Below, piece after piece: positions 16,709-49,837 of a stretch of DNA of 49,837 bases; within the stretch, counting starts at the first letter, position 1; every line of letters begins with the position of its first letter. Origin of the DNA: a virus; UHGV virus genome UHGV-1368916, one strand, 5' to 3'. The notes under the pieces were generated by a model that saw nothing but the letters and a program-made list of their open reading frames with translations, made no database searches and was not told the origin of the DNA. Made by a program: the position numbers and the translations under genes.

Positions 16709-16911
16709 AACTCGTTGATGACTGGAAAAGCGCATGGCGCTGGTTCTCCATGCATGCACTGGTGCTGGCCGGGATTATCCCCACGGTATGGGCCGAGCTA
16801 CCGCCAGACCTTAAGACCGCAATCCCTCCGGGTGCGATGGGTGCCATTACAGCGGTAATCGCTGCATGCGGCGTGGTTGGTCGTCTGGTTAACCAGAGTA
16901 AGCCGCAATGA
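16705..16911 (+). CDS. Small two-TM membrane protein in the lysis cassette (68 aa)
   Basis: The product is MKLVDDWKSAWRWFSMHALVLAGIIPTVWAEL...AMGAITAVIAACGVVG. It is coupled between the lysozyme and Rz. Confidence 0.4.
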   Translation: MKLVDDWKSAWRWFSMHALVLAGIIPTVWAELPPDLKTAIPPGAMGAITAVIAACGVVGRLVNQSKPQ

Positions 16912-18443: not shown

Positions 18444-18923
18444 ATGGCGGCATTAAAACCAGAGATTAAAGCCTTCATAGTTCAATCAGTTGCGTGCTTT
18501 GATACCCCCTCTCAAGTGGTCGAGTCCGTCCTGAAAGAATTTGGTGTTCAGATTACCCGCCAACAGGTTGAGCAAAACGACCCGACGAAGATAAGCGGCA
18601 AGGGCCTGGCGCAGAAATGGGTCGATCTCTTCAACCGTACCCGTGACCGCTTCCTCAACGAAATTTCCGACATCCCAATCGCAAACAAGGCGTACCGGCT
18701 TCGCGTTCTGGACCGCATGGCTGCGCGCGCCGAGGGAATGAAAAACCTCGCGCTCACCGCTGAGATTATTGAGCAAGCCGCCAAGGAATGCGGAGATGCC
18801 TACACCAATAAGCACAAGTTTGAACATTCCGGCCCAAATGGTGGCGCCATCCAGACGATCACCATGAGCAAAGAGGAATACAAGTCCGCACGGCAGGAGA
18901 TGATGGAGGATGACGACTGCTGA
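18444..18923 (+). CDS. Putative terminase small subunit
   Basis: A 159-aa protein immediately upstream of, and overlapping, the large terminase. The RBS GGATGGTGAA precedes it. Confidence 0.45.
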   Translation: MAALKPEIKAFIVQSVACFDTPSQVVESVLKEFGVQITRQQVEQNDPTKISGKGLAQKWVDLFNRTRDRFLNEISDIPIANKAYRLRVLDRMAARAEGMKNLALTAEIIEQAAKECGDAYTNKHKFEHSGPNGGAIQTITMSKEEYKSARQEMMEDDDC

Positions 18924-20385: not shown

Positions 20386-21855
20386 GTGAGCGAACAAGAT
20401 AACGGCCTTCAACTGGCTGTGAACAATCTCGCCACTGAAATGCGGCGAGCGAATTACCTTAACGCCATCGGTATCGGCGGGGGCAATACCAAGCGCCCGA
20501 CGCTCTATCAGGAGTTTGGTTACCCGCGCACCATTACCTTCCATGACTTTTACAACATGTACCGGCGCAACGCCGTCGGATTCGCTGTGGTGCATCGCCT
20601 TCTGGATGGATGCTGGCAGGACTATCCGGTCATCGTTGATGGTGATGAGTCCCAGGAGGCGAAGAAAACTAACCCGTGGGAAAAGAAAGTCACCAGGTTC
20701 ATGAAAAAATGGTGGCCGAAGGTGAAGGATGCCGATCGCCGCAATATGGTGGGGCGCTACTCCGCGCTGTTACTGCAGATCAAAGATAACCGGCCATGGA
20801 ATGAGGAAGTAGACACTTCCCTTGTGAGGAGTCTTGGCGAGGCAGCGCTGGTTAAACTCATCCCAGTGTGGGAGCCGCAACTGACTGTTGCCGAATGGGA
20901 TAACGATCGCCAGTCCGAGACGTTCGGCCAGCCGAAGATGTTCAACTTCAACGAGCAGCCGGTAGGAGATGAGGCTTTCGTCGGACCGACTCGCGGCGAG
21001 CCAGTGCATCCGAGCAGGGTGATCCTGTTCTGCGAAGGATCGGAGGATGACAACGTTCTGTCGGGTATCCCGCTTCTTGAGGCCGGATACAACAAAGGGC
21101 TCGACCTTGAGAAGATTTCTGGCGGTGGCGCTGAGGGCTTCCTGAAGAATGCCAGCCGGCAAATCGCGGTCGAGTTCAGCAAAGAAACAGACATGGCTAC
21201 GCTGTCCGATCTGGCGAAGAAGGCTGGTTATGCTGACCTCGGCGAAGCGATGGGCGATAAGGTCAACAAGCTTAACCGCGGCACCGATGCAGCGGCGGTC
21301 ATGCAGGCCGGGCAGATGCACGTTCTGAGCGTGACACCCGGCGACCCTGGGCCGACGTGGGAAGTCACCGCGAACGAGCTGGCGGCATCAGTGCAAATCC
21401 CTTTCACCATCCTGTTTGGGCAGCAGACCGGACGCCTGGCGAGCGATGAGGATAAAACAGACTGGGCCATTCGCCGCAATACCCGCCGCAACGGCTTCCT
21501 GACTGACCGAATCACAGCCTTGCTGGAGCGCTTCTGGACCCTGGGCATTATCGATCCGCCGACAAATGGAGAGGTCACCATTTCATGGACTGACCTGCTT
21601 GCACCTGGCGAAAAAGAGAAAATCGAGAACGCTTCGAAACTGGCCGATATCGTGCAGAAAACGTCGGGCTTCTATGGTGGCGAGCCGCCATTCACGGCCA
21701 ACGAACTTCGCGAGATTGTAGGCCTTGACCCTCTGCCTGAGCCAAAGCAGCCACCTAACCCGAATGACAAGGTGACAACCGATGATCCACTGGCCGATGA
21801 CGCCGGAGCAGACGGCAAAGGTGGGGCTGCCGATAGTTCCGCGCAGCAAGGTTGA
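20386..21855 (+). CDS. Portal protein
   Basis: A 489-aa protein directly after TerL and before the Mu-F-like head protein. It has an acidic C-terminus. Confidence 0.7.
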   Translation: MSEQDNGLQLAVNNLATEMRRANYLNAIGIGGGNTKRPTLYQEFGYPRTITFHDFYNMYRRNAVGFAVVHRLLDGCWQDYPVIVDGDESQEAKKTNPWEKKVTRFMKKWWPKVKDADRRNMVGRYSALLLQIKDNRPWNEEVDTSLVRSLGEAALVKLIPVWEPQLTVAEWDNDRQSETFGQPKMFNFNEQPVGDEAFVGPTRGEPVHPSRVILFCEGSEDDNVLSGIPLLEAGYNKGLDLEKISGGGAEGFLKNASRQIAVEFSKETDMATLSDLAKKAGYADLGEAMGDKVNKLNRGTDAAAVMQAGQMHVLSVTPGDPGPTWEVTANELAASVQIPFTILFGQQTGRLASDEDKTDWAIRRNTRRNGFLTDRITALLERFWTLGIIDPPTNGEVTISWTDLLAPGEKEKIENASKLADIVQKTSGFYGGEPPFTANELREIVGLDPLPEPKQPPNPNDKVTTDDPLADDAGADGKGGAADSSAQQG

Positions 21856-22786
21856 CCCGACTCGATCAGCGAAGCAGGTCAGCGTGATGTTCCGGGATAT
21901 CGAGGTCCGGTATCTCGGTATCAAGCGCGCTCTGAAATCGCTCTTCGACCAGCGCCTGACCGGGAGAGAGCGAGAGGTTAACAGCCACAACTGGCACTTC
22001 CTGTGCCACGTTAACGGCGCCGAGCCAACGCTCTACCAGGTCAACGCCGGCAAGTTTATCTACGACATGTCAGCACAGGAGATGGCCGACCTGCTCGAAG
22101 CGGTGCAGGCCATTCTCGACGATTACCTGCTGGAAGGCGGAGAACAAAACCTGTGGGCGATGGATTACGTCGTCGCAGAAGCTCAGCGCGGAACGCTGGA
22201 GGCATACAACAACCTCTCGCAGCAGTCGCAGGTGTACGCCAGCCAGACAACTCTCTCACAGCTTCTGAGTAGCCCCGCTTATCAAAATCAGATAGCGGCG
22301 GCCAGGCTGACAACGTTCAGTGACTGGAAGGTCATCAGTGATACCGCGCGCGGCGACCTGACCAACATCATCACCGATGCGGTGGCGCGCGGAGTTAACC
22401 CACGGGAAACGTCTGGCGTCATCAGCAAGCGCCTCGATGTTTCGATGTCGAAGGCCAAGACCATCGCTCAGACTGAGCAGGTCGGCGCACTGCGGCAGGC
22501 GCAATGGAACGAAACGGACTGGGCAGCGGATCGGCTTGGCCTGAATACTGGCCTGCTGTGGCTATCTGCGCTCAAACCGACCACGCGCAGCTGGCATGCC
22601 AGCCGTCACGGAAAGGTCTACACCACCGAGCAGGTGCGAGACTTCTACGCCGAGAACGGAAACCGGTACAACTGCTATTGCAGCCAGATTCCGGTGTTGC
22701 TCAATGACGACGGTAGCATTTTCAATCAGGGGTTGGCTGAGAAGCTGGAGAAAGAACGTAAAAGTTGGTTAGAGACGACACCATAG
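21797..22786 (+). CDS. Head morphogenesis protein (Mu gpF / SPP1 gp7 family)
   Basis: The C-terminal stretch SWHASRHGKVYTTEQ is typical of the family. The alternative ATG at 21782 overlaps the portal 3-prime end. Confidence 0.65.
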   Translation: MTPEQTAKVGLPIVPRSKVDPTRSAKQVSVMFRDIEVRYLGIKRALKSLFDQRLTGREREVNSHNWHFLCHVNGAEPTLYQVNAGKFIYDMSAQEMADLLEAVQAILDDYLLEGGEQNLWAMDYVVAEAQRGTLEAYNNLSQQSQVYASQTTLSQLLSSPAYQNQIAAARLTTFSDWKVISDTARGDLTNIITDAVARGVNPRETSGVISKRLDVSMSKAKTIAQTEQVGALRQAQWNETDWAADRLGLNTGLLWLSALKPTTRSWHASRHGKVYTTEQVRDFYAENGNRYNCYCSQIPVLLNDDGSIFNQGLAEKLEKERKSWLETTP

Positions 22787-22827
22787 AATGATGATAGATT
22801 TGAATCTCATTAAAATTGGAGGTTCAG

Positions 22828-23304
22828 ATGTCCAGATATGATGAGCTTCGGAGTGCGGCATTAAGGAAAAGTCAGAAAGAAGACTTGTACTGGAGTGGTT
22901 TGTATAAGGTCTATAATAAATTCAATAAGGATTTCTCAGAATTCCTTGGCGTCAACAACGAAATAATTAAAGATTCATCAAATGAACGAATTCCAGTGCT
23001 AACAATTGGCGTTTATGATGAGGAAAAGCAATGCGTTGATGATGCCTTTGACAGCCAGTTGCCGAAGGATAATAATTTTTTATGCTTCTACTGCTGCCTG
23101 AGAATAGGTGGGGTGGGTGCAAGTGACGGCACATCAAATATATTATTTGATATAAACGTCTGCAGAGACGGAGATGAATATGATTTTGTATCCAATGCAT
23201 TAACAAATACAATCAAATGCTATGAAGTTGACGGTAATGTAGATATGACTCGTTTCTTTGAAGCCATATACAACAAAATCATTACAGATTTAAACACACG
23301 GTAG
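22828..23304 (+). CDS. Hypothetical 158-aa protein, a very AT-rich gene inserted in the head module
   Basis: The RBS GGAGG precedes the ATG at 22828 (MSRYDELRSAAL...). It has its own terminator at 23324-23346. Its base composition differs strikingly from the flanking structural genes. I recognise no family. Confidence 0.55.
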   Translation: MSRYDELRSAALRKSQKEDLYWSGLYKVYNKFNKDFSEFLGVNNEIIKDSSNERIPVLTIGVYDEEKQCVDDAFDSQLPKDNNFLCFYCCLRIGGVGASDGTSNILFDINVCRDGDEYDFVSNALTNTIKCYEVDGNVDMTRFFEAIYNKIITDLNTR

Positions 23305-23323
23305 TGTTTTATATACATGAATA

Positions 23324-23346
23324 GGTCGCCACGGCGGCCTTTTTTA
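23324..23346 (+). terminator. Rho-independent terminator (GGTCGCC acg GCGGCC plus T6)
   Basis: Seen directly. A near-identical hairpin recurs at 28467-28490. Confidence 0.5.
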
Positions 23347-23376
23347 TTGCCTGAAATCCACTAACGAGGACCCAGC

Positions 23377-24762
23377 ATGAAACGCAACCGCGTTAACGTG
23401 CTGACCGTCGTCAACTCCGCTTCAAACATCACTACTGAAACCATCGACGGCAAGCCACATATCGTGGTTCGCGGCATCACGCCTGTCGTGGACGATATCG
23501 TGATGAACCGGAAGTTGTACCCGGCAGCAGAAATCGAAAAGGCCTACAACACGCTTGAGCGTAACCCGATGCCGCTGGGCCACCCGAAGGTTGACGGCAA
23601 GCATGTGTCTGCTCGCGATGTCCGGGCGGTGAATGAATATCACGTAGGCGCATGGCTGCAGAACGTCAGCCATGAAGGTGGGAAGGTGACGGGTGATATG
23701 TACGTTAACCGCCAGTACGCCGAGTCAAGCGAGAAGGGCAAGCGCCTGATTAACCGCCTTGATGAGATGATTGCCGGTACCAACTCAGAACCCATCCATA
23801 TCTCCACAGGACTGTTGTATTCCGGCATTGCTGCTAATGGCGAGTCGAAGGGCAAGAAGTACAACGAGATCGCCACCAACATGATGTTTGACCATGTGGC
23901 GGTGCTGCTCGACGAACCCGGCGCCGGAACGCCTGCAGAAGGCGTCGGCATCTTCGTGAACTCAGAAGGTAATGAGCAGCAGATCGAAGTTGCTCGCCTT
24001 GCTGATGGTATCGACTGCACCCGTGAAGGTCTGCTCAACAAGACCAAATTCTTTTTCACCAATGCCTCCAACTTCTCTTTTGACGACATTTCACGCGCTA
24101 TCAGCGACAAGCTTCGCGAGGGTGACACAGAAGATAAGTGGCTATGGCCAGAAACGGTGTGGCCAGACAGCTTCATCTACCGCGATGACACCAGATACCT
24201 AAAGCAGAAGTACCTCATCGATGATGACGGCAAAGCCGTGTTCGTCGGCGAACCTGTAGAAGTCGTGCGCAAACCCATTGAGTACGAGATTAAAACCAAC
24301 GGAGAGAACGATCCGATGAAAGAACTGATTATCAATGCGCTCCAAGCCGCTGGTAAGCCGACTGAAGGCAAGTCCGATGCCGAACTGATGGACGCTTACA
24401 ACCAGCTGGCGGCAGAGAAAGCAGCAGCCAAGAAAGAAGGTGGCGATGAAATTGATCCCGCTACCGGCAAACCTAAGAAAAAAGAGCAGGCCAGCAACAG
24501 CGAAGAAGTGCCGGCGTGGTTTAAGCCATTTGCTGATGATTTGGCAGCCGTTAAGTCAGGCCTGGCAGTGAATTCTGACAAAGAGAAAGGCGAAAAACGC
24601 GCTGCCGTAAAAGCGAAATTCGGGCTGGATGACCTCGCAGTGAACGCTCTCGACGGCGCTGCCCTTGATGGCCTGTTTGCTCAGTGTCAGACATCTACCG
24701 GCCTGAATGGTGCATTCCGCCCGGTCAACAACAACGATTCTTTCAGCGAAATGCCGGAGTAA
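23377..24762 (+). CDS. Putative prohead protease / scaffolding fusion protein
   Basis: A 461-aa protein. The N-terminal ~250 aa are globular. The C-terminal third is Ala/Lys/Glu-rich (AAEKAAAKKEGGDEIDPATGKPKKKEQ...), as in scaffold domains. It lies between the Mu-F-like and capsid genes. Confidence 0.45.
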   Translation: MKRNRVNVLTVVNSASNITTETIDGKPHIVVRGITPVVDDIVMNRKLYPAAEIEKAYNTLERNPMPLGHPKVDGKHVSARDVRAVNEYHVGAWLQNVSHEGGKVTGDMYVNRQYAESSEKGKRLINRLDEMIAGTNSEPIHISTGLLYSGIAANGESKGKKYNEIATNMMFDHVAVLLDEPGAGTPAEGVGIFVNSEGNEQQIEVARLADGIDCTREGLLNKTKFFFTNASNFSFDDISRAISDKLREGDTEDKWLWPETVWPDSFIYRDDTRYLKQKYLIDDDGKAVFVGEPVEVVRKPIEYEIKTNGENDPMKELIINALQAAGKPTEGKSDAELMDAYNQLAAEKAAAKKEGGDEIDPATGKPKKKEQASNSEEVPAWFKPFADDLAAVKSGLAVNSDKEKGEKRAAVKAKFGLDDLAVNALDGAALDGLFAQCQTSTGLNGAFRPVNNNDSFSEMPE

Positions 24763-24765
24763 AAA

Positions 24766-25197
24766 ATGGCTAAAGACGGGAAACACGTAATTCACGCGGG
24801 CGGTATTTTCCCCAACCCGCAACTTAATCGTGAAGGTTCTGCGGCCGCAGCGTTTCTGCCGGGTACCGTTATTTTCTTCAGTGCAGCTAAGCCGACTCCG
24901 TCGGTTGACGGCACCGAAGATGCGATCCTCTACGTCGCTAACTACGACTATCTGCGCTGCAAAACAGTTGACGATGCCTATGCTATCGGCGACTGGGTGG
25001 TAAACATCCAGCCAACTCCGGGCGTATTCCTCAACGTTCGCGCTGCCGCCGGCACCTACACCAAAGGTCAGCCGGTTTCTGTGGCCAACGGCCAAATCAA
25101 AGCACTGGCAGCAGATGAAACCATCTTTGCCTATGTCGAAGAAGACAAGTCCCTGACCGCTGCAGCAGGCGATCTGGTTCGCGTCGTGTTCAAGTAA
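24766..25197 (+). CDS. Putative head decoration / accessory capsid protein (143 aa)
   Basis: A Gly/Ala/Val-rich beta-type sequence, positioned directly upstream of the major capsid gene. Confidence 0.35.
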   Translation: MAKDGKHVIHAGGIFPNPQLNREGSAAAAFLPGTVIFFSAAKPTPSVDGTEDAILYVANYDYLRCKTVDDAYAIGDWVVNIQPTPGVFLNVRAAAGTYTKGQPVSVANGQIKALAADETIFAYVEEDKSLTAAAGDLVRVVFK

Positions 25198-25208
25198 GGA
25201 GAGACTGA

Positions 25209-26306
25209 ATGTTTGTATTTTCCACCCGACGCGCGACTGAGACGGGCAACCTCGAAGCGAACCAGGCGCAGTTCAATGAGCTGCAACAGGCTCGCAATAT
25301 GAGTGCTCAGGCCGTTGCTGATTTCGTATCCCGCACCCGCTGGCGTGGTGATGCGGCAAACACTCCGGTGCTGGACGCGACGAACGCTGTCGACGATATC
25401 CGCCGCCTGTATCGAGCTTATGATCAGACTGTGCTGGCTGAATTCGAACCGACTACTGAATTCACTCTGCTTAACGACCTGATCCCGTTGTCCCGCTCTG
25501 TCCGTCTTGAAGAGTCCGTGTACGAGTATGCTCGCACCGGTGGCCGCGGCTGGGCGCATACCTCCATGTCCGGCCAGATTGGTGCGGCGCTTGATGCGCG
25601 CGCGTACACCTTCGACGGTACTATGGTTCCGATCCACGACTCTGGCTTCAAATTCCAGTGGCGTGACCCGATTTTCAACAAAGGCTCCGCTCTGGCTTCT
25701 CTGGCCGATGCTCAGCGCGGCTCTGTTGATGATGTTCGTCGTCAGTACGTGGATTACGTCTTCAACGGTTTCCGCGATTCCGCCGGCAACTATATCGCCT
25801 TCGATGGCAAGACCTGGAAGGGCGTCAAAGCCGATGAGCGCGTACAGATTGTAGATCTCAGCGCTTCCGGCCTGAACATCGACTTCACCAGTGCCAGCGC
25901 AACGGCGGAGCAAATTCGCAACGCGGCTATCGCACTGCGCGACGTGATGAAGCTGACCAACCTGCAGTATGCGCAGCAGACCTGGTATGTTTCCGGTGAG
26001 ATCACCTCAAACCTGGAGCGCTACTTCAGCGACAATTACCAGTCTGACACCATTCTGCAAGAGTTGCTGAAGCTCTCAGGCATCGCTGCCATCAAAGAAG
26101 ATGCGCAACTTTCCGGTAACCAGATCCTGATTGTTCCACTGACGGCCGGTGTTATCGCTCCGATTGTCGGTCAGGCTGTCGGTACCGTTGCTGACCCTCG
26201 CCAGTTCTATAACAGCGATTACGTCTGGCGCACCTGGGGCGCGATGGGTCTGATGGTTAAGACCGACATCAACAATCGCAAATCCGTTATCTACGCGCAC
26301 AGCTAA
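25209..26306 (+). CDS. Major capsid protein
   Basis: This call is positional. A 365-aa protein following the protease/scaffold and decoration genes. Confidence 0.55.
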   Translation: MFVFSTRRATETGNLEANQAQFNELQQARNMSAQAVADFVSRTRWRGDAANTPVLDATNAVDDIRRLYRAYDQTVLAEFEPTTEFTLLNDLIPLSRSVRLEESVYEYARTGGRGWAHTSMSGQIGAALDARAYTFDGTMVPIHDSGFKFQWRDPIFNKGSALASLADAQRGSVDDVRRQYVDYVFNGFRDSAGNYIAFDGKTWKGVKADERVQIVDLSASGLNIDFTSASATAEQIRNAAIALRDVMKLTNLQYAQQTWYVSGEITSNLERYFSDNYQSDTILQELLKLSGIAAIKEDAQLSGNQILIVPLTAGVIAPIVGQAVGTVADPRQFYNSDYVWRTWGAMGLMVKTDINNRKSVIYAHS

Positions 26307-35845: not shown

Positions 35846-35854
35846 ATGACGCAA

Positions 35855-35878
35855 ACCTCGCTTCGGCGGGGTTTTTTA
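35855..35878 (+). terminator. Terminator (CCTCGC ttcg GCGGGG plus T6)
   Basis: Seen directly. Confidence 0.5.
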
Positions 35879-35893
35879 TTGCCCGGGGGATGC

Positions 35894-38464
35894 ATGGCTG
35901 AAGGTGAAAAGGTTGGTGGAATTTATATAGAGATTGAAGCGGAAACTGCTAAATTGCTTACTGGTCAGCAGCAGGCAAACAAAGCTTTAGATAGCATCGG
36001 TGATCATGCACAAAAAACAGCAGGCCAGTTAAATAAACTTGATACTCAGGTCAGCGCCACCGCTAAGGGCGTATCTTCAGGTTTTAGATCCAGTGTTCAG
36101 CAAGCTGGTTACCAACTTCAAGACTTCATTGTTCAGGTGCAGGGCGGGCAGTCAGCGCTTGTTGCTTTTAGTCAGCAAGGGTCGCAGCTAGCTGGGGCAT
36201 TCGGGCCGGGCGGTGCTATCGTCGGGGCGCTAATCGCGCTTGGAACTGTTGTTGCAGGGACTTTAATTTCCTCTCTTAATGGTGGGAAAAGCGCAATGGA
36301 TGCGCTTAAAGATGCTGCCGAGAGAATGAATGATGTTATCTCTGTTTCCTCTCAGGGTATCGCTGCACTATCTGACAAATACGCAAACCTTGCCAGGGTC
36401 AATGTCACGGCAGCAACACTGCTGAGAAACCAGGCTCTAATTGAATACAATCAGGCAATTTCAAAGATACCCAAAGCGATAGGTGATGCAGCTGACTCTG
36501 TTCTCTCATTTGGCGACAAAGCCATATCGGCATTAGGTGGCGGATATGCATCGGTTGAGGGATTTAATGATCGCCTTAAATCGCTGAATATAACTACTGA
36601 TGATTACAGTTCGGCAATGAAGCAAGCGTATGGCGCCGGAATGAATTTCCGAGCAACGGCTGACACTATTGGCAATACTGTCGGTGCCGTAGCCTCTAAG
36701 TTGGGGATATCAGAAGAGGCGGCATTTGGTCTTACTAAGCAACTCGCAGACCTTAGTGACAACCCGTCTCCGCAGGCATTGCAAACACTTGTTTTGAGAA
36801 TTAATGAAATCATCAACTCCTCAAAAAATGCAAAGCCAGAGTTGATTGAGCTATACAATAAACTCGCAGATTTGTCTACCGGCGCATCAAATGCCGCCGT
36901 TAATTTTGAGATACTGAAAAAATCAACAGATAACCTGACCTCTGGGCAAAAAAGTTTAATTCAACAGTCCGAAAGGAACCTAGCGCTATCTAAACTACAA
37001 GGTGCCGCAAGGGCAAGATTAGCGGCTCAATTTGCGGCTGAGGACGCGGGATTCTCTAAAGACGATCCGCACACTAAGCGAATGATGGATGATGCCGCTG
37101 CAACCTTTACCAATCTGGACTCGCAGAAGAAACTGAAAGCGGAGCAGAAGAAAGGCGAGAGTCAGGCAGAGAGAAATGCAAAAGTTGTTGAAGAGTACAG
37201 CCAGAAAGCGAAATTGGCCGCCGATTCGACAAGCGAACTCTCGCGCGAGCAGGCGATACTGGCAGCTAAACAGAAGTTAACGAACGCCACACCACAACAG
37301 GTTGCTCAAGTTGAACGTGATGCAGCGGCTGCATGGGATACGGCGAACGCCCTTAAAGCCCAGGCTGCTGCACAAAAACTCCTCCCTGAAACAAGAGAGA
37401 ACGCCTCTTATCAACAGGATATGAAGGATTTGAAAACTGCGCTCGATGGGAAGAGGATTACCCAGCAGCAGTACAATCAGACCAGCGAACAACTGGAGCA
37501 ACAACACCAGGCTAATCTGGCTAAGATACGCGCTCAGCAAAATGTAAGCCCCATGCAGGAAGCTCAGGGGCAGATTGACCCGGTGCAGCAGCTGGCCAAC
37601 CAGCACGCGCAGGAGTTGGCGTTGATTCAGCAGTTTGAGCAGCAAGGAGTTCTCGCCCATGAGAATGCATTAGCGCTGAAAAATGCCGCTGACCGGCAGT
37701 ATGAGCAGCAGCGGATCGCAGCTCAATGGGAAATCCTCAGCCAGCAGAGCCTCGGTTATAACATGCTGACGAGTGCGGTGGACGCCTTTAGCGGGAATGC
37801 CTCCAATGCAATCACCGGCCTGCTAACCGGCACAATGTCAGCACAGGAGGCGATGCGGTCGCTCGGTAACACCATCCTGAACAGCGTGATCAACAGCATT
37901 GTCCAGGTTGGCGTCGAAGCGCTGAAAAACTACATTCTCGGTCAGACGCTCGGCGCGGCATCGGTGGCGACCTCAGTCGGACTGGCGGCAACTACCGCAT
38001 CGGCCTGGGCTCCGGCGGCCGCGATGGCATCGCTCGCCTCGTTCGGTGCTAACGCTGGCCCGGCTGCTGCTGGTATCAGTTCGACAGTTGGGCTTGCCAG
38101 CGGGCTTGCGCTTGCCGGCGCCCGCTACAACGGCGGCCCGGTCTCAGCCGGCGGCCTGTATCAGGTCGGCGAGAAAGGTAAACCAGAGATCTACCAGGCC
38201 AGCACCGGCAAGCAGTACATGATCCCCGGCGATAACGGGAAGGTCATCAGCAATAAGGACATGCAGTCAGGAGGAGGGATCAGCGTGCAGGTGAACGTCA
38301 TCAACCAGTCTACCGGTGCCACTGTACAGAGTGCCGATGGCTACATGCAGGACGGTAGCGCTGTGGTGGACTTGCTGATCACCGATATGGAAAGAGGTGG
38401 CCCGGTATCATCTCAGATGCAGCAGACATTTGGCCTGAATCGTAAAGCATCGGGTGCTTATTGA
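35894..38464 (+). CDS. Tail tape measure protein
   Basis: An 856-aa protein that is alpha-helical and Ala/Gln-rich. It has a Gly/Ala-rich hydrophobic segment near the C-terminus (GLAATTASAWAPAAAMASLASFGANAGPAAAGISSTVGLASGLALAG). The ATG at 35894 follows the terminator. The ORF-track start at 35846 lies inside the terminator. Confidence 0.85.
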   Translation: MAEGEKVGGIYIEIEAETAKLLTGQQQANKALDSIGDHAQKTAGQLNKLDTQVSATAKGVSSGFRSSVQQAGYQLQDFIVQVQGGQSALVAFSQQGSQLAGAFGPGGAIVGALIALGTVVAGTLISSLNGGKSAMDALKDAAERMNDVISVSSQGIAALSDKYANLARVNVTAATLLRNQALIEYNQAISKIPKAIGDAADSVLSFGDKAISALGGGYASVEGFNDRLKSLNITTDDYSSAMKQAYGAGMNFRATADTIGNTVGAVASKLGISEEAAFGLTKQLADLSDNPSPQALQTLVLRINEIINSSKNAKPELIELYNKLADLSTGASNAAVNFEILKKSTDNLTSGQKSLIQQSERNLALSKLQGAARARLAAQFAAEDAGFSKDDPHTKRMMDDAAATFTNLDSQKKLKAEQKKGESQAERNAKVVEEYSQKAKLAADSTSELSREQAILAAKQKLTNATPQQVAQVERDAAAAWDTANALKAQAAAQKLLPETRENASYQQDMKDLKTALDGKRITQQQYNQTSEQLEQQHQANLAKIRAQQNVSPMQEAQGQIDPVQQLANQHAQELALIQQFEQQGVLAHENALALKNAADRQYEQQRIAAQWEILSQQSLGYNMLTSAVDAFSGNASNAITGLLTGTMSAQEAMRSLGNTILNSVINSIVQVGVEALKNYILGQTLGAASVATSVGLAATTASAWAPAAAMASLASFGANAGPAAAGISSTVGLASGLALAGARYNGGPVSAGGLYQVGEKGKPEIYQASTGKQYMIPGDNGKVISNKDMQSGGGISVQVNVINQSTGATVQSADGYMQDGSAVVDLLITDMERGGPVSSQMQQTFGLNRKASGAY

Positions 38465-38520
38465 TATTATTCAAAACCCACTATCCTCGTCATCTTCCTT
38501 CACTAGATTTATGCAGATTG

Positions 38521-38763
38521 ATGATTAGTTTTGATGATTTTATAACCCCAAGAATTCTTTCATGGCTTTATGGGCTGACATTGGTTGGTTTTTTCTTCGT
38601 GGCAATTTTAGCTGCGTTAGGTGGTGATTATGCGAAAACCATCATAATGTTACTTATGGCTTTATTCAGCCGGATATTCTTTGAGGGTCTGATGGTGGTC
38701 TTCAAGAATAATGAGTACCTAAGGCGCATTGCTGAGGCTCTTGAAAAGCAGCAACAAAAATAA
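38521..38763 (+). CDS. Small AT-rich two-TM membrane protein (80 aa), with its own terminator
   Basis: The product MISFDDFITPRILSWLYGLTLVGFFFVAILAALGG...IIMLLMALFSRIFFEGLMVVF has two TM segments. It is inserted between the tape measure and tail-tip genes. Confidence 0.5.
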   Translation: MISFDDFITPRILSWLYGLTLVGFFFVAILAALGGDYAKTIIMLLMALFSRIFFEGLMVVFKNNEYLRRIAEALEKQQQK

Positions 38764-38767
38764 CTAT

Positions 38768-38790
38768 ACCCGCTCCGGCGGGTTTTTTTA
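38768..38790 (+). terminator. Terminator (CCCGC tccg GCGGG plus T7)
   Basis: Seen directly. Confidence 0.6.
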
Positions 38791-38804
38791 TGCCCGGAGG
38801 AAAC

Positions 38805-39281
38805 GTGGCAACAGTTCAATACCCTCCGTTCCTGCCGCTTCCCCAGCGCGCCGATCAGAACATGACGCAGGATACAGCCTGGCAGACGACGCAAACGGCG
38901 GTCGGCCCCCTGATAATCACGCCGATCACTACGGACCTGAAAGCAACCTGGACGTTGCAGTGGATTTTCACACTGGCCCAGGCTGAGCGATTTAAGTCGT
39001 GGCTGCGCTCGCCGACATACTGCGACCGCGGGCGTAACTGGTTCCAGATGCCGATCGACCTGGGTGATACGCAGGGCGTGCAGCAGCAGACGCTGCATTT
39101 CGTCGATATGCCGGTGCAGACCAGCAAAAACGGCAACATTGTCACCTGGACCGCAACGGTCATCAGCAACGGTATCGAGGACATTACTGAGGACTACGAT
39201 GACTGGATTGTTGAGGCCCAGCCCGGCTACGGATACTGGCTGGATTACCTGATCACCGAAGTTATGCCGAGGGCTGACTGA
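38805..39281 (+). CDS. Putative minor tail protein (158 aa)
   Basis: The RBS CGGAGGAAAC precedes a GTG at 38805. It is the first gene of the tail-tip block. Confidence 0.4.
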   Translation: MATVQYPPFLPLPQRADQNMTQDTAWQTTQTAVGPLIITPITTDLKATWTLQWIFTLAQAERFKSWLRSPTYCDRGRNWFQMPIDLGDTQGVQQQTLHFVDMPVQTSKNGNIVTWTATVISNGIEDITEDYDDWIVEAQPGYGYWLDYLITEVMPRAD

Positions 39282-39751
39282 TGCCGACATTGAGAGAGTG
39301 GAAGGAGCGCCGGCCGGCGAGCGACATCAAACAGACGGTGGAGTTTTATCACCCTGCGTTTGGTTATTACCGGGTGGTCAATAACCTGTTCCGCCCGGCG
39401 ACGTTCGGCGGAAACTCCTTCGAGCCAGCGCGGTTCAGTGTGACCGAGCCGGCACAGGATGGAACTGCGGTCATATCCATGACGATCACCTTTGTCGCCG
39501 CGACGGAGCATGTCCGGCAGACACTGAAAAGCTGGCGCGGGGCGGCGCGGATGACGCCGATCCAGTGCCTTTACCAGCAGTGGGACGATATCGGTGATTC
39601 AGCATCAATGAAAGACTGGACGCTGTTCGTAAGCGATATATCCGCCGACGCCAATAACGTGACGGTCAACGCCGGATTCACCAATCCTCTGACGCTGGCC
39701 AACCCCATCATTTACACAACCGAACTCTATCCCGGACTGAAAACATCATGA
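39281..39751 (+). CDS. Minor tail protein (DUF1833-like, 156 aa)
   Basis: Its position and size fit this role. It is coupled to its neighbours. Confidence 0.45.
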   Translation: MPTLREWKERRPASDIKQTVEFYHPAFGYYRVVNNLFRPATFGGNSFEPARFSVTEPAQDGTAVISMTITFVAATEHVRQTLKSWRGAARMTPIQCLYQQWDDIGDSASMKDWTLFVSDISADANNVTVNAGFTNPLTLANPIIYTTELYPGLKTS

Positions 39752-40143
39752 CACAAGACGAATTTATCCGGCTTGTTAACGGCAAGCCGTGGGCTAACCG
39801 CGCCTGCAGTTTTGACGAGATGGATTGCTGGGCGCTGGTTGTCCTGTATTACCGGCATGTTCTGGGGCTTGAGCTGCACCATGTGCCGGGCTACGAATCC
39901 GGGTCTGACTTCATTACCTGCCATGAGCAGGAAGTGGAGCACTGGCGACCGGTACCGGCGGCGGTAACGGGATGCATTGCTGTTTTCTACCGCGGCGAAG
40001 TCCCGGCGCATATCGGCGTAATGACGAGCCCGGTTAAGTGCCTGCACGCCCGGGGGGAGTTCGGTTTCGTGCGCAGCGACAATCCGCTGGCGCTTCTTAA
40101 AGTCTACAGCCGCGTGGAGTACATGGTGCATGGTTCGATATGA
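39748..40143 (+). CDS. NlpC/P60-family tail-associated peptidase
   Basis: A catalytic Cys lies in FDEMDCWALVVLYY. His residues lie in PAHIGVM and CLHARGEFGF. Confidence 0.6.
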   Translation: MTQDEFIRLVNGKPWANRACSFDEMDCWALVVLYYRHVLGLELHHVPGYESGSDFITCHEQEVEHWRPVPAAVTGCIAVFYRGEVPAHIGVMTSPVKCLHARGEFGFVRSDNPLALLKVYSRVEYMVHGSI

Positions 40144-42604
40144 ATTGCAGCGCCTGCCTGGCGCACCGAAGCAACGCGGCACCATTGAGGCCGGGACGCC
40201 CCTGATTGAGCTTCTCGACTCACTGAAGCTGCATAACGATGTTGTGATTAAGCTCAACGGCAGAGAGCTTACTGACGACTTCGATATAGCTTATCCGCTG
40301 CGTAAAAATGATGTGGTCCTGGTGTTCGACCAGCCAGAGGGTGGGGTAGGGAAATTAATCAGCACCATACTGCGACCAGTCACGAAAATCCTTTCTGGCG
40401 CGATGAAATTGCTTGGGCTTGCGCCAAAATCAGGCAGTATTTCTGTTGCCACCGGAGATTCGCCCAACAACGATGTAACCCAGCAAACCAATCGGGCAAG
40501 ACTTTATAAAGGTCGTCCGAATATTTATGGGCAGGTGCGCTCTTATCCTGATCTCATACAGGAATCGATGTTTGAATACATCAATAACAACAAAATGGTG
40601 ACGGAATGGATGGAGATTGGCTACGGCCATTACAATATTTCATCAGTTCGTTACTCTGAATCCTCGCTGGTTGCTCTGGCTGGCGCCACTTATCAGATAT
40701 TTCAGCCTGGAGAAGTTATAGGGGAAATCATCCAGGGTTACGCGTTCGATGACGTTGACGGCCAGGAATTGCCAGGCACTAACGAGCAGACAACGGATAT
40801 TACTAATCAGGCAACAACTAATTCACTATTAACGGGTGCATTTGCTGGTGGTCAGTTCTACGCGAAAATAGCCAAAGCCAACGATTTTGATGTTTTCTAC
40901 GACACCCCCAAACCATTTGCAGTAACCGTTACTGTTAACGTCACATATAACACCGCGAGTGGATCTGTCACGAAAGACATTAATGTTACCGCCAATCTGT
41001 TTCGGTCTGAAATTTCAGACGATGGAGCTCTACTTGATCCACTGGAATACTACGAATTCTGGTTTAGCGGTCTGGGTGGGGCTGATTTTGCGGCTCTTCC
41101 CGCTGATGCTGTAGTGAACGGCACGCTTTTCACCATAACGCAGTACGGCACGATTGCTGTAGGTCCTTTCTTTGCCGCGCTGGAAGGAGATCAGTTGTGG
41201 ATTCACTTGTACGCAAACGAAAACGGTGGGTATGACGGTCCGGCAAGATTAACCTGGTGGAAAGTTGATGAGGACAACGACCAGATCCCGGGTACAGAAG
41301 AGAGTATGGATGTGAACGTCCATAACGATGGCCCCAACCAGGATTACATCTATCGGACCTATAAAATCACTCCAGCAGCCGGGTTCGGGCGTTACGCCTT
41401 TAAGGGGGAGAGAACGAATAACAGCGCCAGCGATTCAGTCCTGCACCTGTCTGGCGCTCACTCTGTTACTGTTCGTAAGAACGTTGTTTATCCTGATGAT
41501 ACGATTGTTCGCGTGACAGTCCGTCAGACAGAAACACAGACTGTTGCATCCGAACGTAAATACAACTGCCTGGCGCAGCGGAAAGTCATTTCGTGGTCAC
41601 CGTCTAGCGGCATTGACTACACATTGCGTGCCAGTCGGTCATTTGCTGATGCCGTTCTGCATGAGTGGGTAATGACTGGAAAGCAGGACCCCGCGCGGTT
41701 GGATTTGCCGTCGCTCTACGCCATTAAAGACACCCTGCCTGATGTACAGCTTGGATATTTTGACTGGACCTTCTCCGATGCAACCCAGCCGCTAGGTGAG
41801 CGTATACAGACCATCTGTAACGTAGCCCGCGTGAGTTTCAACTGGATCGGTGATGTTCTGACGTTCTGGCGTGATGAAAGGGTTGCTAACCCTGATGCAG
41901 TTTTCGCCCGATCAAACATGTTCTGGGATGAATACAAGTTGTCATGGAAAATGTCTTTACCTGGTGGGTATGACGGCGTCACGCTTGATTACGTTGACCC
42001 CTCAACTAACAAAAAGACCTACATCTATCTGAGCGTTGGCAGCGGCGGGATTAATGAAGTAGCTGATGCAACGGTAAATGCAATGCAGGTGAGTTTGTCC
42101 GGCTGCCGCAACAGGACTCAGGCGGTTGATCGGGCATGGCTAGAGGCGCGCAAAATCCTCTACTCACGTCTCACAATGACAGTCAAAGTACTGGAATCGA
42201 CGCAGGTGGTTCGCGGTACGGTTGTGCAGTGTCCTGACCTGTACGACAACAAGCAGCAGAACGGCTATATCACAGGGCGCTCCGGGGATGTGTTCTCGAC
42301 CTCTGAGCGTATCGACTTCTCATTCGGGGATATGTGGGTGGTGATGACCGACAGTCTCGGCAATTACCGCGGTCGCTGGCGAGCCTATCCGGTAAGCGGC
42401 AAGCCCAAAGCATTCCAGGCTGCAGCCGATACCTTCGATCTGAACATTTATGACCGCGAAAATGTGCAAAACCCCAGCCGGTATTTCATCGCTACCGACT
42501 CGGAACTCAACTCCACAATCTGGCGCGTCGATAGCGCCAAGCCTAACGGTGACGATACTCAAACGCTATCCCTGACTGAGTATTCAGACTCGATTTATCC
42601 GTAA
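40130..42604 (+). CDS. Tail tip / host-specificity protein (gpJ-like central fibre), 824 aa
   Basis: Size and position support the call. Confidence 0.65.
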   Translation: MVRYELQRLPGAPKQRGTIEAGTPLIELLDSLKLHNDVVIKLNGRELTDDFDIAYPLRKNDVVLVFDQPEGGVGKLISTILRPVTKILSGAMKLLGLAPKSGSISVATGDSPNNDVTQQTNRARLYKGRPNIYGQVRSYPDLIQESMFEYINNNKMVTEWMEIGYGHYNISSVRYSESSLVALAGATYQIFQPGEVIGEIIQGYAFDDVDGQELPGTNEQTTDITNQATTNSLLTGAFAGGQFYAKIAKANDFDVFYDTPKPFAVTVTVNVTYNTASGSVTKDINVTANLFRSEISDDGALLDPLEYYEFWFSGLGGADFAALPADAVVNGTLFTITQYGTIAVGPFFAALEGDQLWIHLYANENGGYDGPARLTWWKVDEDNDQIPGTEESMDVNVHNDGPNQDYIYRTYKITPAAGFGRYAFKGERTNNSASDSVLHLSGAHSVTVRKNVVYPDDTIVRVTVRQTETQTVASERKYNCLAQRKVISWSPSSGIDYTLRASRSFADAVLHEWVMTGKQDPARLDLPSLYAIKDTLPDVQLGYFDWTFSDATQPLGERIQTICNVARVSFNWIGDVLTFWRDERVANPDAVFARSNMFWDEYKLSWKMSLPGGYDGVTLDYVDPSTNKKTYIYLSVGSGGINEVADATVNAMQVSLSGCRNRTQAVDRAWLEARKILYSRLTMTVKVLESTQVVRGTVVQCPDLYDNKQQNGYITGRSGDVFSTSERIDFSFGDMWVVMTDSLGNYRGRWRAYPVSGKPKAFQAAADTFDLNIYDRENVQNPSRYFIATDSELNSTIWRVDSAKPNGDDTQTLSLTEYSDSIYP

Positions 42605-42690
42605 CACACAGCGGTAATTACCAACCTTCGCGCACACCATCAGATTCACTTCTGAGGGCTTCGTGCGCCTTTTATAGGGCGACATGCACA

Positions 42691-44556
42691 ATGGCAGAAG
42701 TACCGTTACCAACTCCAACCGACAACCCGGTGCCCAGTACTGATATCCGGGACGCAGTTTATGCTGGCGCCATGCTGGATAAGGTTGTCACCAGTACCGA
42801 ACCGACATACATCGATCGTCTCGGCGGCGAGCACTACACCGTAGACGGAATGAAGGCGGAAGGGGATAAGGTCGTTGAAGAAACGCGGCAGAATCTGATC
42901 CCTCTCAGCCGGCAGTATATGACCTTGGCAGATGCTCAGGCAGACATTGCTAATATTCCTGAGGGTAGCACCACTTATGTTCGAAGCTCAGACGATAGTG
43001 CCCTCGCGTTCGAGGTCATGAACGTTGGCGGAACGCTGCAGCCTACCGGACGTCAGATGCCCTCAACGTGGATATTTGCAGGGGTAAGATTTCTTAGTGG
43101 ATACGGAGATGAAAAATTCGTAATCATAGGCACTGATTATCAGGTCCTTGAATACGGCAATGATAGCGACAGAATGCGCGATGCTGGGGCAGATATCAAA
43201 TATGGTTACGGTATCCCAGGCAAGCCATTATCTGTAATGGGAAGCGATAACCAGATGGCGTCTTTTTTAACTACTGATTCTTTAGAAGATGCCGGATGTT
43301 CTATTTTAAAGGGCTACTCATCTTCGCCATTCGCTATTCTCGGAAGCGACGATCAATTGCTACTGCCAGGGGGCGGTGGCTCCCAGGCGGCATCAAGTTT
43401 GCCAGAGACTGGTCTTCTTGATTACATGATCGCGATGCAAGAGAGGGCATATACAGGAGGATACCTCACTATTTTTTGTCAGGGTGACTCTCTCACTGCA
43501 GGCACGGGGGGGTTGGGTGCCATTGACGCTATGTACAGCCTTTTTGCAGCAAATCTTGGGCATGGGGGTATCGGTTATTTTGCACCGTCAAACGATAACA
43601 CAGCTTCCCGAGACTTGCTGAATATGGAGCTGGTCTATACGGGGTGGGTCGATAACCAGACCTACGGGAAAAAATGCGCACCATTGAGTTTTGCTCTTGT
43701 TCCGTGGGCAGGTCGCACTAATTTATTTTTCCGGGTAAAAGATGCGTCCCGCAGCAACCCAGTTTACCAGCACGATGTTGTCGAGGTCGGTTTTACTGGT
43801 ACCGGAGACGCCGGAACATCTAGTCAGTTCCGGTTCCGTGCAACCGACAGGAATGACGACGGCTCTACCGGCCCGGCGGGTTCCGGGGAATGGCAAACAG
43901 CCACAATACCGAATAACCCTGAGGGTAGCGAGACGATAACAATCGTCAGGGTGGAGGGCCTGGGGCCGAACTCAGGTCGATTCGCCCTGGAAATTGAACC
44001 TCCCGCATCTGGTCAGGCAGGTTATCCTGCGCTGATAAGCTTCAACTGCATCAACTCTGCTGGCGGTGTGCGGGTTATCAGGTACGCAAGAGGCGGTGCA
44101 ACATTTCAGTATTTCATGAATCAGACAGCGTCTTATCAGCAATACTGGATACAATATTTTCAGCCGGATGTCGCGTTTATTAATCTCGGTGAGAATGATT
44201 ACGCGCTGTCAGATACAGATTTTATGGCCGGTTACAGCGCCATTGTTGAGCGGGTGCAGGATGCTTTGCCGGGTGTGCCTGTGTTTCTGGAGCGCTGGTA
44301 CAGCGACAACCATATTAAGCGCGACGCGGTCTATGATGTCATTCAGGCTAAATACGGCATGCTGGGGTTTAATGTTCGTGACCTTATCCGCAGCTCTAAC
44401 TACGCATTCCAGAACGGTTATGCCTATTCCACCACCAATCCGGCAGACCCGCACCCCAACGCACGCGGAGCCAGAATTATTGGCGCGTATCAGGCGAAAC
44501 GCGCACTCCTGAACTACGCCGTACAATCTCTCAGAAAGGAACAACAAAATGGCTAA
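42691..44556 (+). CDS. Tail fibre / tailspike with a C-terminal SGNH/GDSL hydrolase (esterase) domain
   Basis: The N-terminus MAEVPLPTPTDNPVPSTDIRDAVYAGAMLDKV is a conserved phage fibre anchor. The C-terminal third carries GDSL block I (IFCQGDSLTAG), a Gly block (YARGGATFQY), a GxND block (NLGENDYAL) and the DxxH catalytic pair (NPADPHPNARGARIIG). Confidence 0.7.
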   Translation: MAEVPLPTPTDNPVPSTDIRDAVYAGAMLDKVVTSTEPTYIDRLGGEHYTVDGMKAEGDKVVEETRQNLIPLSRQYMTLADAQADIANIPEGSTTYVRSSDDSALAFEVMNVGGTLQPTGRQMPSTWIFAGVRFLSGYGDEKFVIIGTDYQVLEYGNDSDRMRDAGADIKYGYGIPGKPLSVMGSDNQMASFLTTDSLEDAGCSILKGYSSSPFAILGSDDQLLLPGGGGSQAASSLPETGLLDYMIAMQERAYTGGYLTIFCQGDSLTAGTGGLGAIDAMYSLFAANLGHGGIGYFAPSNDNTASRDLLNMELVYTGWVDNQTYGKKCAPLSFALVPWAGRTNLFFRVKDASRSNPVYQHDVVEVGFTGTGDAGTSSQFRFRATDRNDDGSTGPAGSGEWQTATIPNNPEGSETITIVRVEGLGPNSGRFALEIEPPASGQAGYPALISFNCINSAGGVRVIRYARGGATFQYFMNQTASYQQYWIQYFQPDVAFINLGENDYALSDTDFMAGYSAIVERVQDALPGVPVFLERWYSDNHIKRDAVYDVIQAKYGMLGFNVRDLIRSSNYAFQNGYAYSTTNPADPHPNARGARIIGAYQAKRALLNYAVQSLRKEQQNG

Positions 44557-45226
44557 AACGACTTTCCTGCAAATTCCCGTAGCTGTTAACAGCGGCATCG
44601 CGTCAACTTATTCCGAGCGCGACGATAAAACCTGTCGCTGGGACCCATCACATTATTTTGACTGGCGAGTATCTACCGTAGCAGACCGAGCTGGGGATAT
44701 GGCCATCTCGTTAGGTTCCGCTATTTCGGAATCCACGCTGAACGGCATTAAGACGATGAAAAGCGCGCTGACTGCAAACGGTGGCGTCACATCTGAAAAT
44801 GTCTACCCCGCTACAGCGGCAAACGGCTATTGCTACGCCTTCGCTTTCAAGCGAGATAACACCACACAAGCTACCTTTTTAATCGCGGGGCCCCATCTGC
44901 GGTTACAGGCACAGACAGATAACAAGCTCTACTATTACAAAACAGGGTCATCAACCCAGCAGGGAGGGGTGGCCTTATCCACAGGCATTGACCTCGTGAT
45001 CGTGAACTACGACCCGGTAACTGACACTGAGACGGTGTATGTCAATGACGCGACCATGACCGTAACCGGGGCATCCGCAATCACGTATCAAAACTACCCC
45101 ATGAACCTGGCGGCGACTGCCGCGAATAACGTAAACTACGGAGAAATTCTCATCTTTGATGCAGTGAAGTCAGTATCTGATATTGCTGCGATTAAAGCGT
45201 ACTACAGAGAACAATACGGCAACTGA
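44549..45226 (+). CDS. Hypothetical 225-aa protein downstream of the tail fibre
   Basis: An overlapping start (ATGGCTAA) couples it to the fibre gene. Confidence 0.45.
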   Translation: MAKTTFLQIPVAVNSGIASTYSERDDKTCRWDPSHYFDWRVSTVADRAGDMAISLGSAISESTLNGIKTMKSALTANGGVTSENVYPATAANGYCYAFAFKRDNTTQATFLIAGPHLRLQAQTDNKLYYYKTGSSTQQGGVALSTGIDLVIVNYDPVTDTETVYVNDATMTVTGASAITYQNYPMNLAATAANNVNYGEILIFDAVKSVSDIAAIKAYYREQYGN

Positions 45227-46017: not shown

Positions 46018-46066
46018 CTTTCTTCTAAGCCGTAGGTCACAGGTTCGAATCCTGTAGGGCGTGCCA
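46018..46066 (+). other. attP core: the 3-prime ~49 nt of a tRNA-Arg(UCU) gene (anticodon loop CTTCTAA through the T arm, acceptor and CCA)
   Basis: TTCTTCTAAGCCGTAGGTCACAGGTTCGAATCCTGTAGGGCGTGCCA has a T arm ACAGG-TTCGAAT-CCTGT and an acceptor strand AGGGCGT-G-CCA. No matching 5-prime half lies upstream. It ends 16 nt before the int stop. Confidence 0.6.
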
Positions 46067-46081
46067 TTAAGAAACAGTAAC

Positions 46082-47245
46082 TTACGCCAGTTTTAAACCA
46101 GCCTGATTTCCTCCTTGTGTCGTATTTGTGTCGCTAGCGCCAAAAATGGCGTCAATTTTCCGTGCGTGTTCGGTCAAATGGTTCGGCGCCAGGTGAGCAT
46201 AACGACGTACCATCTCGATGCTCTCCCATCCTCCCATTTCCTGTAAAACAGAAAGCGGGACGCCGGACTGAATCAGCCAGCTCGCCCAGGTGTGCCGGAG
46301 GTCGTGAAAACGGAAATCCTCGATCCCCGCTTTTTTCAGACCGGCGCGCCAGGCGTTATTGTCATCCACCCGCATTTTTCTCACCGCGGGCGTCAGCGTT
46401 CCATCCGGGCGATGTCTTGCGGTGGTGTGAACGAACACCCACCGGGAGTGCTTCCCTATCTGATCCCTTAATACCCTGCATGCGGTATCATTCAGAGCTA
46501 CGCCAATCGCCTTGCCCGCTTTTGCGTTCTCCGGATTTACCCATGCAACCTTTCTCTGCATATCGACCTGTTGCCACTCAAGCCCGATGATGTTTGAGCG
46601 GCGCAGGCCGGTCGCCAGTGCAAATATCACCACTGGCTTAATGCTCTCCGGCATGCACTCGATCAACCGCTCAGCTTCTTCTCTGGTCAGCCACCGTATC
46701 CGCTTACTGATCGGCTTGCGGGTTTTGATAACAGGGGCTGTTTTTATCCAGCCCCAGTCATTCGCCGCGGCCCTGAGAAGGGATCGAATGAAGGAAAGGT
46801 GTTGCGCCTTCGTCGCCTGAGAAACCTGCCGTGGTTTGTATTCAGGAACCGGCTTACCTTTCCTCAGCGCGGCATCGCGTTTACTCTCCCACACCTGCAG
46901 ATGCTTACGGTTGATCATCCCGTTAACAGCTTCGTGAACCTCCTCCGCCTTTATCTTCGAGACATCACGACCGGAAAAATGCCGCAACCAAAACTCAATT
47001 TTGGTTTTGTCATCATCCAGCGATCGCTTATGGTCTTTCTCCCGCAACCACCGGATACAGCATTCTTCAAAGGTTCTGACGGGAAGGTCGCCGATCTGGT
47101 CAACCCGCCACGCTTCCGCCTTCAGTTTGTCGTGGAGCTCCTGAGCCTGCTTTTTGTCCCCCGTGCCAAGAGATCGCCTAACTCTTTCTCCTGACGGCGT
47201 AAAGAAATGACAGTGCCACACGCCGCCCCTGAGGGTGATTGACAT
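46082..47245 (-). CDS. int: Tyrosine integrase (phage integrase family)
   Basis: The catalytic residues are R ([15 protein letters not shown]), HDLRHTWAS and RRYAHL (Tyr nucleophile). The N-terminus has a SAM-like arm-binding region. Confidence 0.9.
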
Positions 47246-47457
47246 AAAACTTCTCCTTTATGTTCACCCGCGTTCGCGATGACAGGATCGCGCGGGGTTT
47301 TCAAATATGCAATACACGCAGCCTCGGTCGTTCTGTACTTATTGCCGACCTTGCGGCCGGCGAGCTCCCCAGACTCAATCAGGCGGTAGATCACCCGCGC
47401 AGACACGATGAGCAAATCGGCGGCCTGCTGTGCTGTTATCGGTTTGTCAGATGCCAT
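47122..47457 (-). CDS. xis: Excisionase / AlpA-type HTH DNA-binding protein
   Basis: [38 protein letters not shown] is an Xis/MerR-type winged HTH. The RBS GGAGGTGAT precedes it. Its 3-prime end overlaps the int start. Confidence 0.6.
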
Positions 47458-47458
47458 A

Positions 47459-49577: not shown

Positions 49578-49732
49578 TGCGTACCTCTTTTCGTGTCCAG
49601 CTCTTCGGCCAGTCTTTGAGCCTTTAACGGGTTTCTTACCACTTCACCAGATGGCATTAGCCAGCCACGATGAAGGACGGAGTACATACACTTCACTTTT
49701 CCTACGGTTATGGCGTCGCGGTAATGTTTCAT
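49574..49732 (-). CDS. Small protein (52 aa) between exo and dam
   Basis: The RBS GGGGAG precedes it. The ATG overlaps the exo stop (ATGA). The stop overlaps the dam start. Confidence 0.35.
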
Positions 49733-49837
49733 TTCCACTGCTCCCCGAAGGTGAAACCGATCTCCGACAGCGATTCATCCATCTTGCTGATGAACTCCGG
49801 CACCATTTCGTTGAAGTCGGACATGTATTTGTCGTCG
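49729..49837 (-). CDS. exo: Lambda Exo-type exonuclease, C-terminal segment (continues from 1..572 across the circular junction)
   Basis: The reverse translation [35 protein letters not shown] matches the lambda Exo C-terminus ([35 protein letters not shown]). It is in frame with the N-terminal segment when the window end is joined to the window start (681 nt, 226 codons, the same length as lambda Exo). Confidence 0.85.

Follow-up and report, generated by a model that had tools for sequence, protein, structure and literature searches.

The exo gene and the gene content of the window

The window analyzed here, the whole 49,837-nt stretch of UHGV virus genome UHGV-1368916, begins and ends inside a single gene, exo, which encodes a lambda-type exonuclease on the minus strand. 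The 5' part (1..572) comprises the ATG (572-570), residues 1-190 and the first two bases of codon R191, and the 3' part (49729..49837) completes this codon with its third base and continues through residues 192-226 to the stop codon (49729-49731), so that the two parts have phases of 2 mod 3 and 1 mod 3, respectively. With the window closed from base 49837 to base 1, the 572 nt and 109 nt yield an ORF of 681 nt (226 amino acids plus stop), in which residues 1-190 are read from 572..3 and residues 192-226 from 49836..49732, and codon 191 (CGC, Arg) is cut by the join between CG and C, with bases 2 and 1 at the window start and base 49837 at its end. The protein context of the join is IHHVVVE-R-DDKYMSD. 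The initial annotation had assigned the minus-strand translation of 572..1 to the N-terminus of lambda Exo and that of the last 109 nt to its C-terminus, had proposed that the two are in frame once the ends are joined, with these residues at the junction, and had given the product the length of lambda Exo; the reconstruction agrees with it on each of these points.

The alignment of the joined protein to lambda Exo (PDB 1AVQ/6M9K) covers residues 1-226 of both proteins without gaps (E = 2.6e-135), and 190 of the 226 residues are identical (84%); the protein also matches the Pfam family YqaJ. The residues R28, D119, E129 and K131 of lambda Exo are all identical at the same positions; in the lambda Exo structures, the last three are catalytic and R28 binds the 5'-phosphate. 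The product is a member of the lambda exonuclease (YqaJ / PD-(D/E)XK) family, and 5'->3' dsDNA exonuclease activity is predicted for it. The gene is real, intact and ordinary, and its split is a linearization artefact devoid of biological meaning.

Next to exo, on the same strand, lie the genes for its partner, a RecT-family single-strand annealing protein (569..1414; Pfam PF03837, E = 2.3e-27), and for a GamL-like host nuclease inhibitor (1430..1714; PF28165 on the identical gene in contig L032), and exo is an ordinary member of this Red-like recombination module (Gam-RecT-Exo). As in the Red system of lambda, a Gam-like inhibitor is encoded upstream and the module belongs to the early left operon, between int and cI; the two differ in that the annealing partner is of the Bet family in lambda and of the RecT family in this phage, and in that two DNA methyltransferase genes separate exo from int here. 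In relatives, the product of 569-1414 is annotated as ‘Bet' although it is a RecT-family protein, and the module is a hybrid of a lambda-type Exo with RecT.

Read from the phage attachment site (attP), the typed genes start with int, xis, a TraR-like protein, the two methyltransferases, exo, recT, gamL, a BstA_C-domain protein and cI, the gene for a CI-type repressor with HTH and S24 peptidase domain matches (4623..5321, minus strand). From there on, with all the coordinates that follow on the plus strand, come cro (a Cro-like HTH protein, 5391..5660), cII (5700..5921; PF05269), the replication genes for an O-like initiator (6007-6861) and a DnaC-like helicase loader (6846-7715; PHROG matches phrog_678 and phrog_50 for the pair), a nin region (NinB, NinI-like and NinG) and a Q-like late antiterminator (13719..14408; phrog_304). 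Genes for tRNA-Asn, tRNA-Phe and an HNH endonuclease are followed by the lysis cassette (holin, lysozyme, a DUF7940 protein and a spanin-like DUF2570 protein, 15955..17318), a metallopeptidase, a DUF2280 protein that is the putative small terminase, TerS, by position only (18444..18923), and a T1-like large terminase, TerL, that is neither of the lambda gpA nor of the HK97 type (18910..20373). The ES18-like head module (portal, SPP1 gp7/Mu F-like protein, DUF2213 protein, decoration protein and major capsid protein, 20386..26306) leads to the neck and tail proteins, including the major tail protein (28515..29267; phrog_853), then to a Rha-like regulator, an insertion sequence (IS) and an Arc/Arc/Ant module and, finally, to the tape measure, the minor tail proteins, an 824-aa tail tip protein, a 621-aa fibre or spike and downstream genes (35846..45226). 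All lambdoid modules are present, each once. No host genes were found among the approximately 60 genes typed (a few small ORFs lie outside the typing), and wherever a scanned protein matched any family, the match was to a phage family. The prophage ST101-KPC2phi6.1 (MK448231.1), taken from att to att, maps onto the window from 46022 to 49837 and on from 1 to 46022, monotonically save for one small module swap. That host flanks are lacking, as initially proposed, is borne out both by this single rotation and by the exclusively phage family matches.

Several genes deserve mention on their own account. Adjoining cI, 3624-4544 (minus strand) encodes a 306-aa protein that gave no match in the Pfam scan at E <= 0.01; a BstA_C domain is matched on the identical gene in L032, and the protein is a candidate for a prophage-encoded BstA-type abortive-infection defence. 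In the nin-like region, a 250-aa protein (8612-9364, plus strand) matches PHROG 887, ‘queuine tRNA-ribosyltransferase', and could be involved in DNA or tRNA base modification. Q is closely followed by the two phage tRNA genes, for Asn(GTT) and Phe(GAA) (14830-14986), in a place where MK448231.1 has four (Asn, Phe, Thr and Arg).

The tail region contains a complete IS of 1,056 bp (32966-34021, within window positions 32957-34030), with perfect 18-bp terminal inverted repeats (GGCTTTGTTGAATAAATC) and a flanking 9-bp direct repeat (GATCAACAA) that resembles a target-site duplication. Its DDE transposase is encoded at 32998..33966, and the element, which on its left reaches into the 3' end of the ORF at 32525..32980, is presumably IS903-like (IS5 family). 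Two regulatory loci are likewise embedded in the tail gene cluster, namely the Rha-like regulator (30190-30747) and a P22 immI-like module (34102-35795) of two Arc-family repressor genes and a P22_AR_N antirepressor, which occupies another position in MK448231.1. Within the tail tip gene (40130..42604), a 34-nt tandem duplication of 42124-42157 seems to be present in some otherwise near-identical contigs, to judge from overlapping BLAST segments in L038; gene calling splits the 824-aa protein into two, of about 670 and 142 aa, in L036, L038 and L039, and the MEGAHIT contig L037 begins at window position ~42101, about 20 nt upstream of this stretch. A frameshift polymorphism is one possible reading of this variation, and a switch in a host-range gene another. 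The 621-aa fibre or spike (42691-44556, plus strand) has weak GDSL-lipase/esterase matches and may be a receptor-binding protein that deacetylates capsule or O-antigen.

The end-to-end join

No direct overlap of 8 nt or longer is left between the window ends because a 99-nt terminal repeat of the source contig had already been trimmed. The source is Ga0495776_010468 from JGI 3300045988 (L034; 49,936 nt), the record coordinates of which coincide with those of the window; its last 17,246 nt correspond to window positions 32691-49837 followed by 1-99, so that the window equals this contig minus a 99-nt direct terminal repeat. Where a de Bruijn assembler follows a circular path, an overlap of one k-mer remains, and a repeat of this length is such an overlap.

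The exact protein sequence of the tail fibre (42691..44556) retrieved 19 contigs. One of these, NODE_270 (ENA ERZ1745642; 49,892 nt), runs over the join for 21,866 nt without a mismatch or a gap. A start at 17968 and a 55-nt terminal repeat were predicted for it beforehand, and comparison of both contig ends bore out the prediction (repeat at 17968..18022), so that another assembly closed the circle elsewhere. The net unit, 49,892 - 55 = 49,837, is base for base that of the window, and all 31,387 of the 31,387 bases compared are identical. The sample identifiers of Ga0495776_010468 and NODE_270 differ, and the two may share a cohort or even reads. Three further contigs, L037 (MEGAHIT, 49,829 nt), L033 and L039, span the join at 99.8-100% identity, and altogether five contigs besides the source, built with different assemblers (SPAdes, MEGAHIT and a scaffolder), do so with 2-22 kb on each side. 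Record names place several of the contigs in human gut runs of PRJEB6456.

The arrangement across the join is also that of the relatives. For an 835-nt query spanning the join, 27 phage records gave a single uninterrupted alignment; most of them are Klebsiella prophages, with 93-96% identity. The exact 50-nt join string lies in the interior of 28 IMG/VR contigs, all of them colinear across it; these 28 are mosaic relatives at 92-97% identity and not the same phage. A scan of the GTDB representative genomes with the 50-nt string gave 0 matches, the phage genotype being absent from the representative set.

The window ends are contiguous. The closed circle proposed in the initial annotation is upheld by the 99-nt repeat of the source contig and by a second assembly with the same net length of 49,837 and another break point, with the refinement that ‘closed circle' describes the assembly map and not necessarily the physical molecule. 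The further claim, that the record is a complete circular phage genome and not a chromosomal fragment, likewise holds, given the single attP, the lambdoid modules present once each and the absence of host genes among those typed.

The attachment site, the integrated copies and the origin of the circle

The attP core (46022..46068, plus strand) is a 47-nt sequence that occurs once in the window and consists of the 3' 45 nt of a host tRNA-Arg(UCU), from the anticodon loop to CCA, plus TT. Beside it lie the genes for a tyrosine integrase (46082..47245, minus strand; PF00589, E = 1.1e-41; phrog_1) and for a 111-aa excisionase that overlaps the int start (47122..47457, minus strand; TIGR01764, 36.5 bits against a cut-off of 28.8; HTH_17). 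Several prophage records end at window position ~46022, adjoining the integrase gene, and in Klebsiella pneumoniae CP125156.1 a related prophage directly follows folD and a complete tRNA-Arg(TCT). At base level, attL consists of the 5' half of the host tRNA, the core and the int-side arm, and attR of the fibre-side arm, the core and host DNA; the basis for attR is the related prophage in CP125156.1 only, and attL was derived also from integrated copies of the same phage, L061 and L062. The site in the window combines the fibre-side arm (40/40 identical to attR), the core and the int-side arm. It is attP, as the initial annotation had it, and neither attL nor attR, the left arm being the phage arm of attR and the right arm that of attL. 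A linear prophage bounded by attL and attR is ruled out by the single copy of the core and by the phage DNA on both sides of it.

L061 and L062 match the window at 100% identity as far as the core and then run on into the full tRNA-Arg(TCT) and folD-ybcJ-cysS-ppiB-lpxH. The same phage thus also occurs integrated, and it is a temperate phage that integrates at a tRNA-gene attB, argU (tRNA-Arg(UCU)), beside folD in Klebsiella. The neighbouring accessions ERZ27239401 (L061) and ERZ27239412 (L037) have the phage in the integrated and in a near-circular form, respectively, and ERZ1741984 contributes the contigs L062, L052 and L038. In the relative L036 (JGI 3300029076; locus 11932-14024), the tail genes are 98.6% identical, and a different integrase, with an Arm-DNA-binding domain, follows after window position 45829; this contig also bears an extra Collar-domain fibre gene and exemplifies the exchange of att/int modules at the boundary between fibre and att.

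Two contigs, L063 and L064, start, and another, L038, ends exactly at the edges of the att core, as they should if attP and attL/attR forms are present together and make the assembly graph fork there. By the SPAdes coverage given in the record names of ERZ1741984, the phage contigs (11.5 and 13.1) stand at approximately twice the contig with attL and host DNA (5.9), a ratio that fits free phage DNA as well as a tandem lysogen. The mix of integrated and circular forms of the same phage across samples hints at induction in situ or at mixed states.

All this fits best a window that is, with high confidence, the full non-redundant 49,837-bp genome of a lambdoid temperate Klebsiella siphophage, obtained as a metagenomic circle that was opened arbitrarily inside exo and stripped of its 99-nt overlap. 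The attP circle would derive from free phage DNA, be it the excised circle, replication intermediates or virion DNA, and this free DNA would have outnumbered the integrated form; virion DNA that is permuted and redundant as a result of headful packaging would alone suffice to make assemblies close into a circle. With the record opened inside exo and the 99-nt k-mer overlap removed, exo would then seem split over both ends.

The main competitor, which we consider very unlikely, is a tandem lysogen (or polylysogen), in which two prophages are arranged head to tail and attP lies between the copies, such that short reads would assemble into a circle without any free phage DNA. The phage does integrate, a tandem junction would reproduce the exact attP, and the breaks at the att core in some samples show that attL/attR forms coexist with the phage sequence. 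However, both circular contigs run straight through attP and break in exo and at 17968, whereas attL and attR at similar depth should branch the graph at the 47-nt core, as in L038, L063 and L064. The initial annotation had named an identical second exo in a tandem prophage as an example of what would speak against it; the integrated copy in L061, with one exo that is contiguous and 100% identical across the join, removes the variant in which a tandem prophage has a duplicated exo at the window ends. A tandem arrangement would, in any case, leave the sequence-level claims of that annotation unchanged.

Still less probable is a phage-plasmid, that is, a circle stably maintained as an extrachromosomal episome and not an excised or virion genome. 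This would agree with the fact that more than one assembly has a circular contig with attP and free of host DNA, but the genes typed include none for partition or plasmid replication, the replication genes are of the lambda O/DnaC-like kind, and the reading is rejected on account of the intact int, xis and attP and of the integrated copies at 100% identity. A scaffold-end or assembly artefact, with ends that are not adjacent and an in-frame exo produced by the collapse of two exo-sharing phages, could appeal to exo being a conserved mosaic joint and to a related phage contig (L008) in the same JGI dataset, but it is hardly credible and effectively refuted by the five other contigs that span the join at 99.8-100% identity, one of them chromosomally integrated, and by a unit length that agrees to the base.

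With the complete phage genome as the preferred reading, the interpretation of the window is fixed: the att site at 46022-46068 is attP, host flanks are absent, and neither exo, which is intact, nor any other feature near the ends is truncated. A more speculative extension, possible and yet rather doubtful, is that the integrated and attP-circle forms in related gut metagenomes reflect a Klebsiella prophage that, in the human gut (probably that of infants), is induced in situ or persists in a carrier state or as an episome. The genome also has the candidate BstA-type defence gene and the IS.

Packaging and the relationship to known phages

The terminase genes are where the initial annotation had suggested looking for cos or pac signatures, and the search gave neither a cosN signal above chance nor a convincing pac repeat. 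With up to 2 mismatches allowed, lambda cosN has 7 matches in the window against 4.6 expected, none of them upstream of TerS; the repeats around the terminase genes are only short and at chance level, and no pac site was identified among them. The only Pfam domain of TerL is Terminase_6C. TerL matches the T1 TerL (E = 1e-35, 27% identity over the N-terminal 285 aa), and its more distant relatives include T1-like phages and mycobacteriophages; among the reference phages, it has no match to lambda gpA, to HK97 gp2 or to the terminases of ES18, Sf6 and SPP1. Neither TerL nor the putative TerS matches a PDB sequence, and NCBIfam leaves the terminase untyped. The putative TerS (DUF2280) is widespread, the protein look-up returning only Klebsiella chromosomes, and the literature on DUF2280 and the terminase and on packaging in Klebsiella lambdoid phages yielded nothing usable. 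The portal, the gp7-like morphogenesis protein and the DUF2213 protein match the ES18 portal, gp6 and gp7 with E = 5e-72, 1e-54 and 2e-35, respectively.

With no gpA-family TerL and no cosN near the terminase genes, packaging of the lambda cos type is not indicated. T1 and ES18 are headful (pac) packagers, and the T1 record annotates a 2.8-kb terminal repeat. Given the resemblance of TerL to that of T1 and of the head module to that of ES18, packaging is probably headful, with linear virion DNA that is circularly permuted and terminally redundant; DNA of this form would account for an assembly that closes into a circle and is opened at an arbitrary point. The portal and head proteins are homologous to those of ES18 and encoded in the same order, at an identity of only 27-36% in the ES18 and T1 matches, whereas the ES18 TerL and TerS are unrelated to those of this phage, the TerL of which is homologous to that of T1.

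The closest relatives are lambdoid prophages and phages of Klebsiella pneumoniae such as ST101-KPC2phi6.1, ST16-OXA48phi5.2, phage 2/2b/6 LV-2017, Kp4856-1 and vB_Kpn_RAH1, which share the gene order from int to the tail fibre, the argU att core and the integrase (95% identity over int), with 83-99% nucleotide identity in the shared modules; the TerL of Kp4856-1 is 99.4% identical to that of this phage. The phage and plasmid collections contain no record of this genome (best coverage 39-48%), and a single relative covers at most 46% of either window half, the window being a mosaic. The exo gene is a conserved mosaic joint in this group, with 92-97% identity just over exo and homology often ending at its borders. 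Compared with these relatives, this genome has in addition the IS, the BstA_C-domain gene, a distinct fibre and an Arc/Ant module in another position; the records of the relatives are linear and cut at att, whereas the window is a record of the circular form with attP. The Klebsiella lambdoid prophages are a well-sampled group, to which this phage adds another mosaic, with nothing new in kind.

The value of the circular-genome result is one of bookkeeping and not of biology; it also gives the host site, argU, and the probable packaging mode. Metagenomic viral contigs with direct terminal repeats (DTR) are taken as ‘complete circular' by the criterion used in tools such as CheckV. The same situation obtains here, with a repeat equal to the assembler k value (99 nt, and 55 nt in the second assembly). 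Circular terminal-repeat contigs of this type are already known in kind, and the window differs from them in nothing beyond the prior removal of the repeat.
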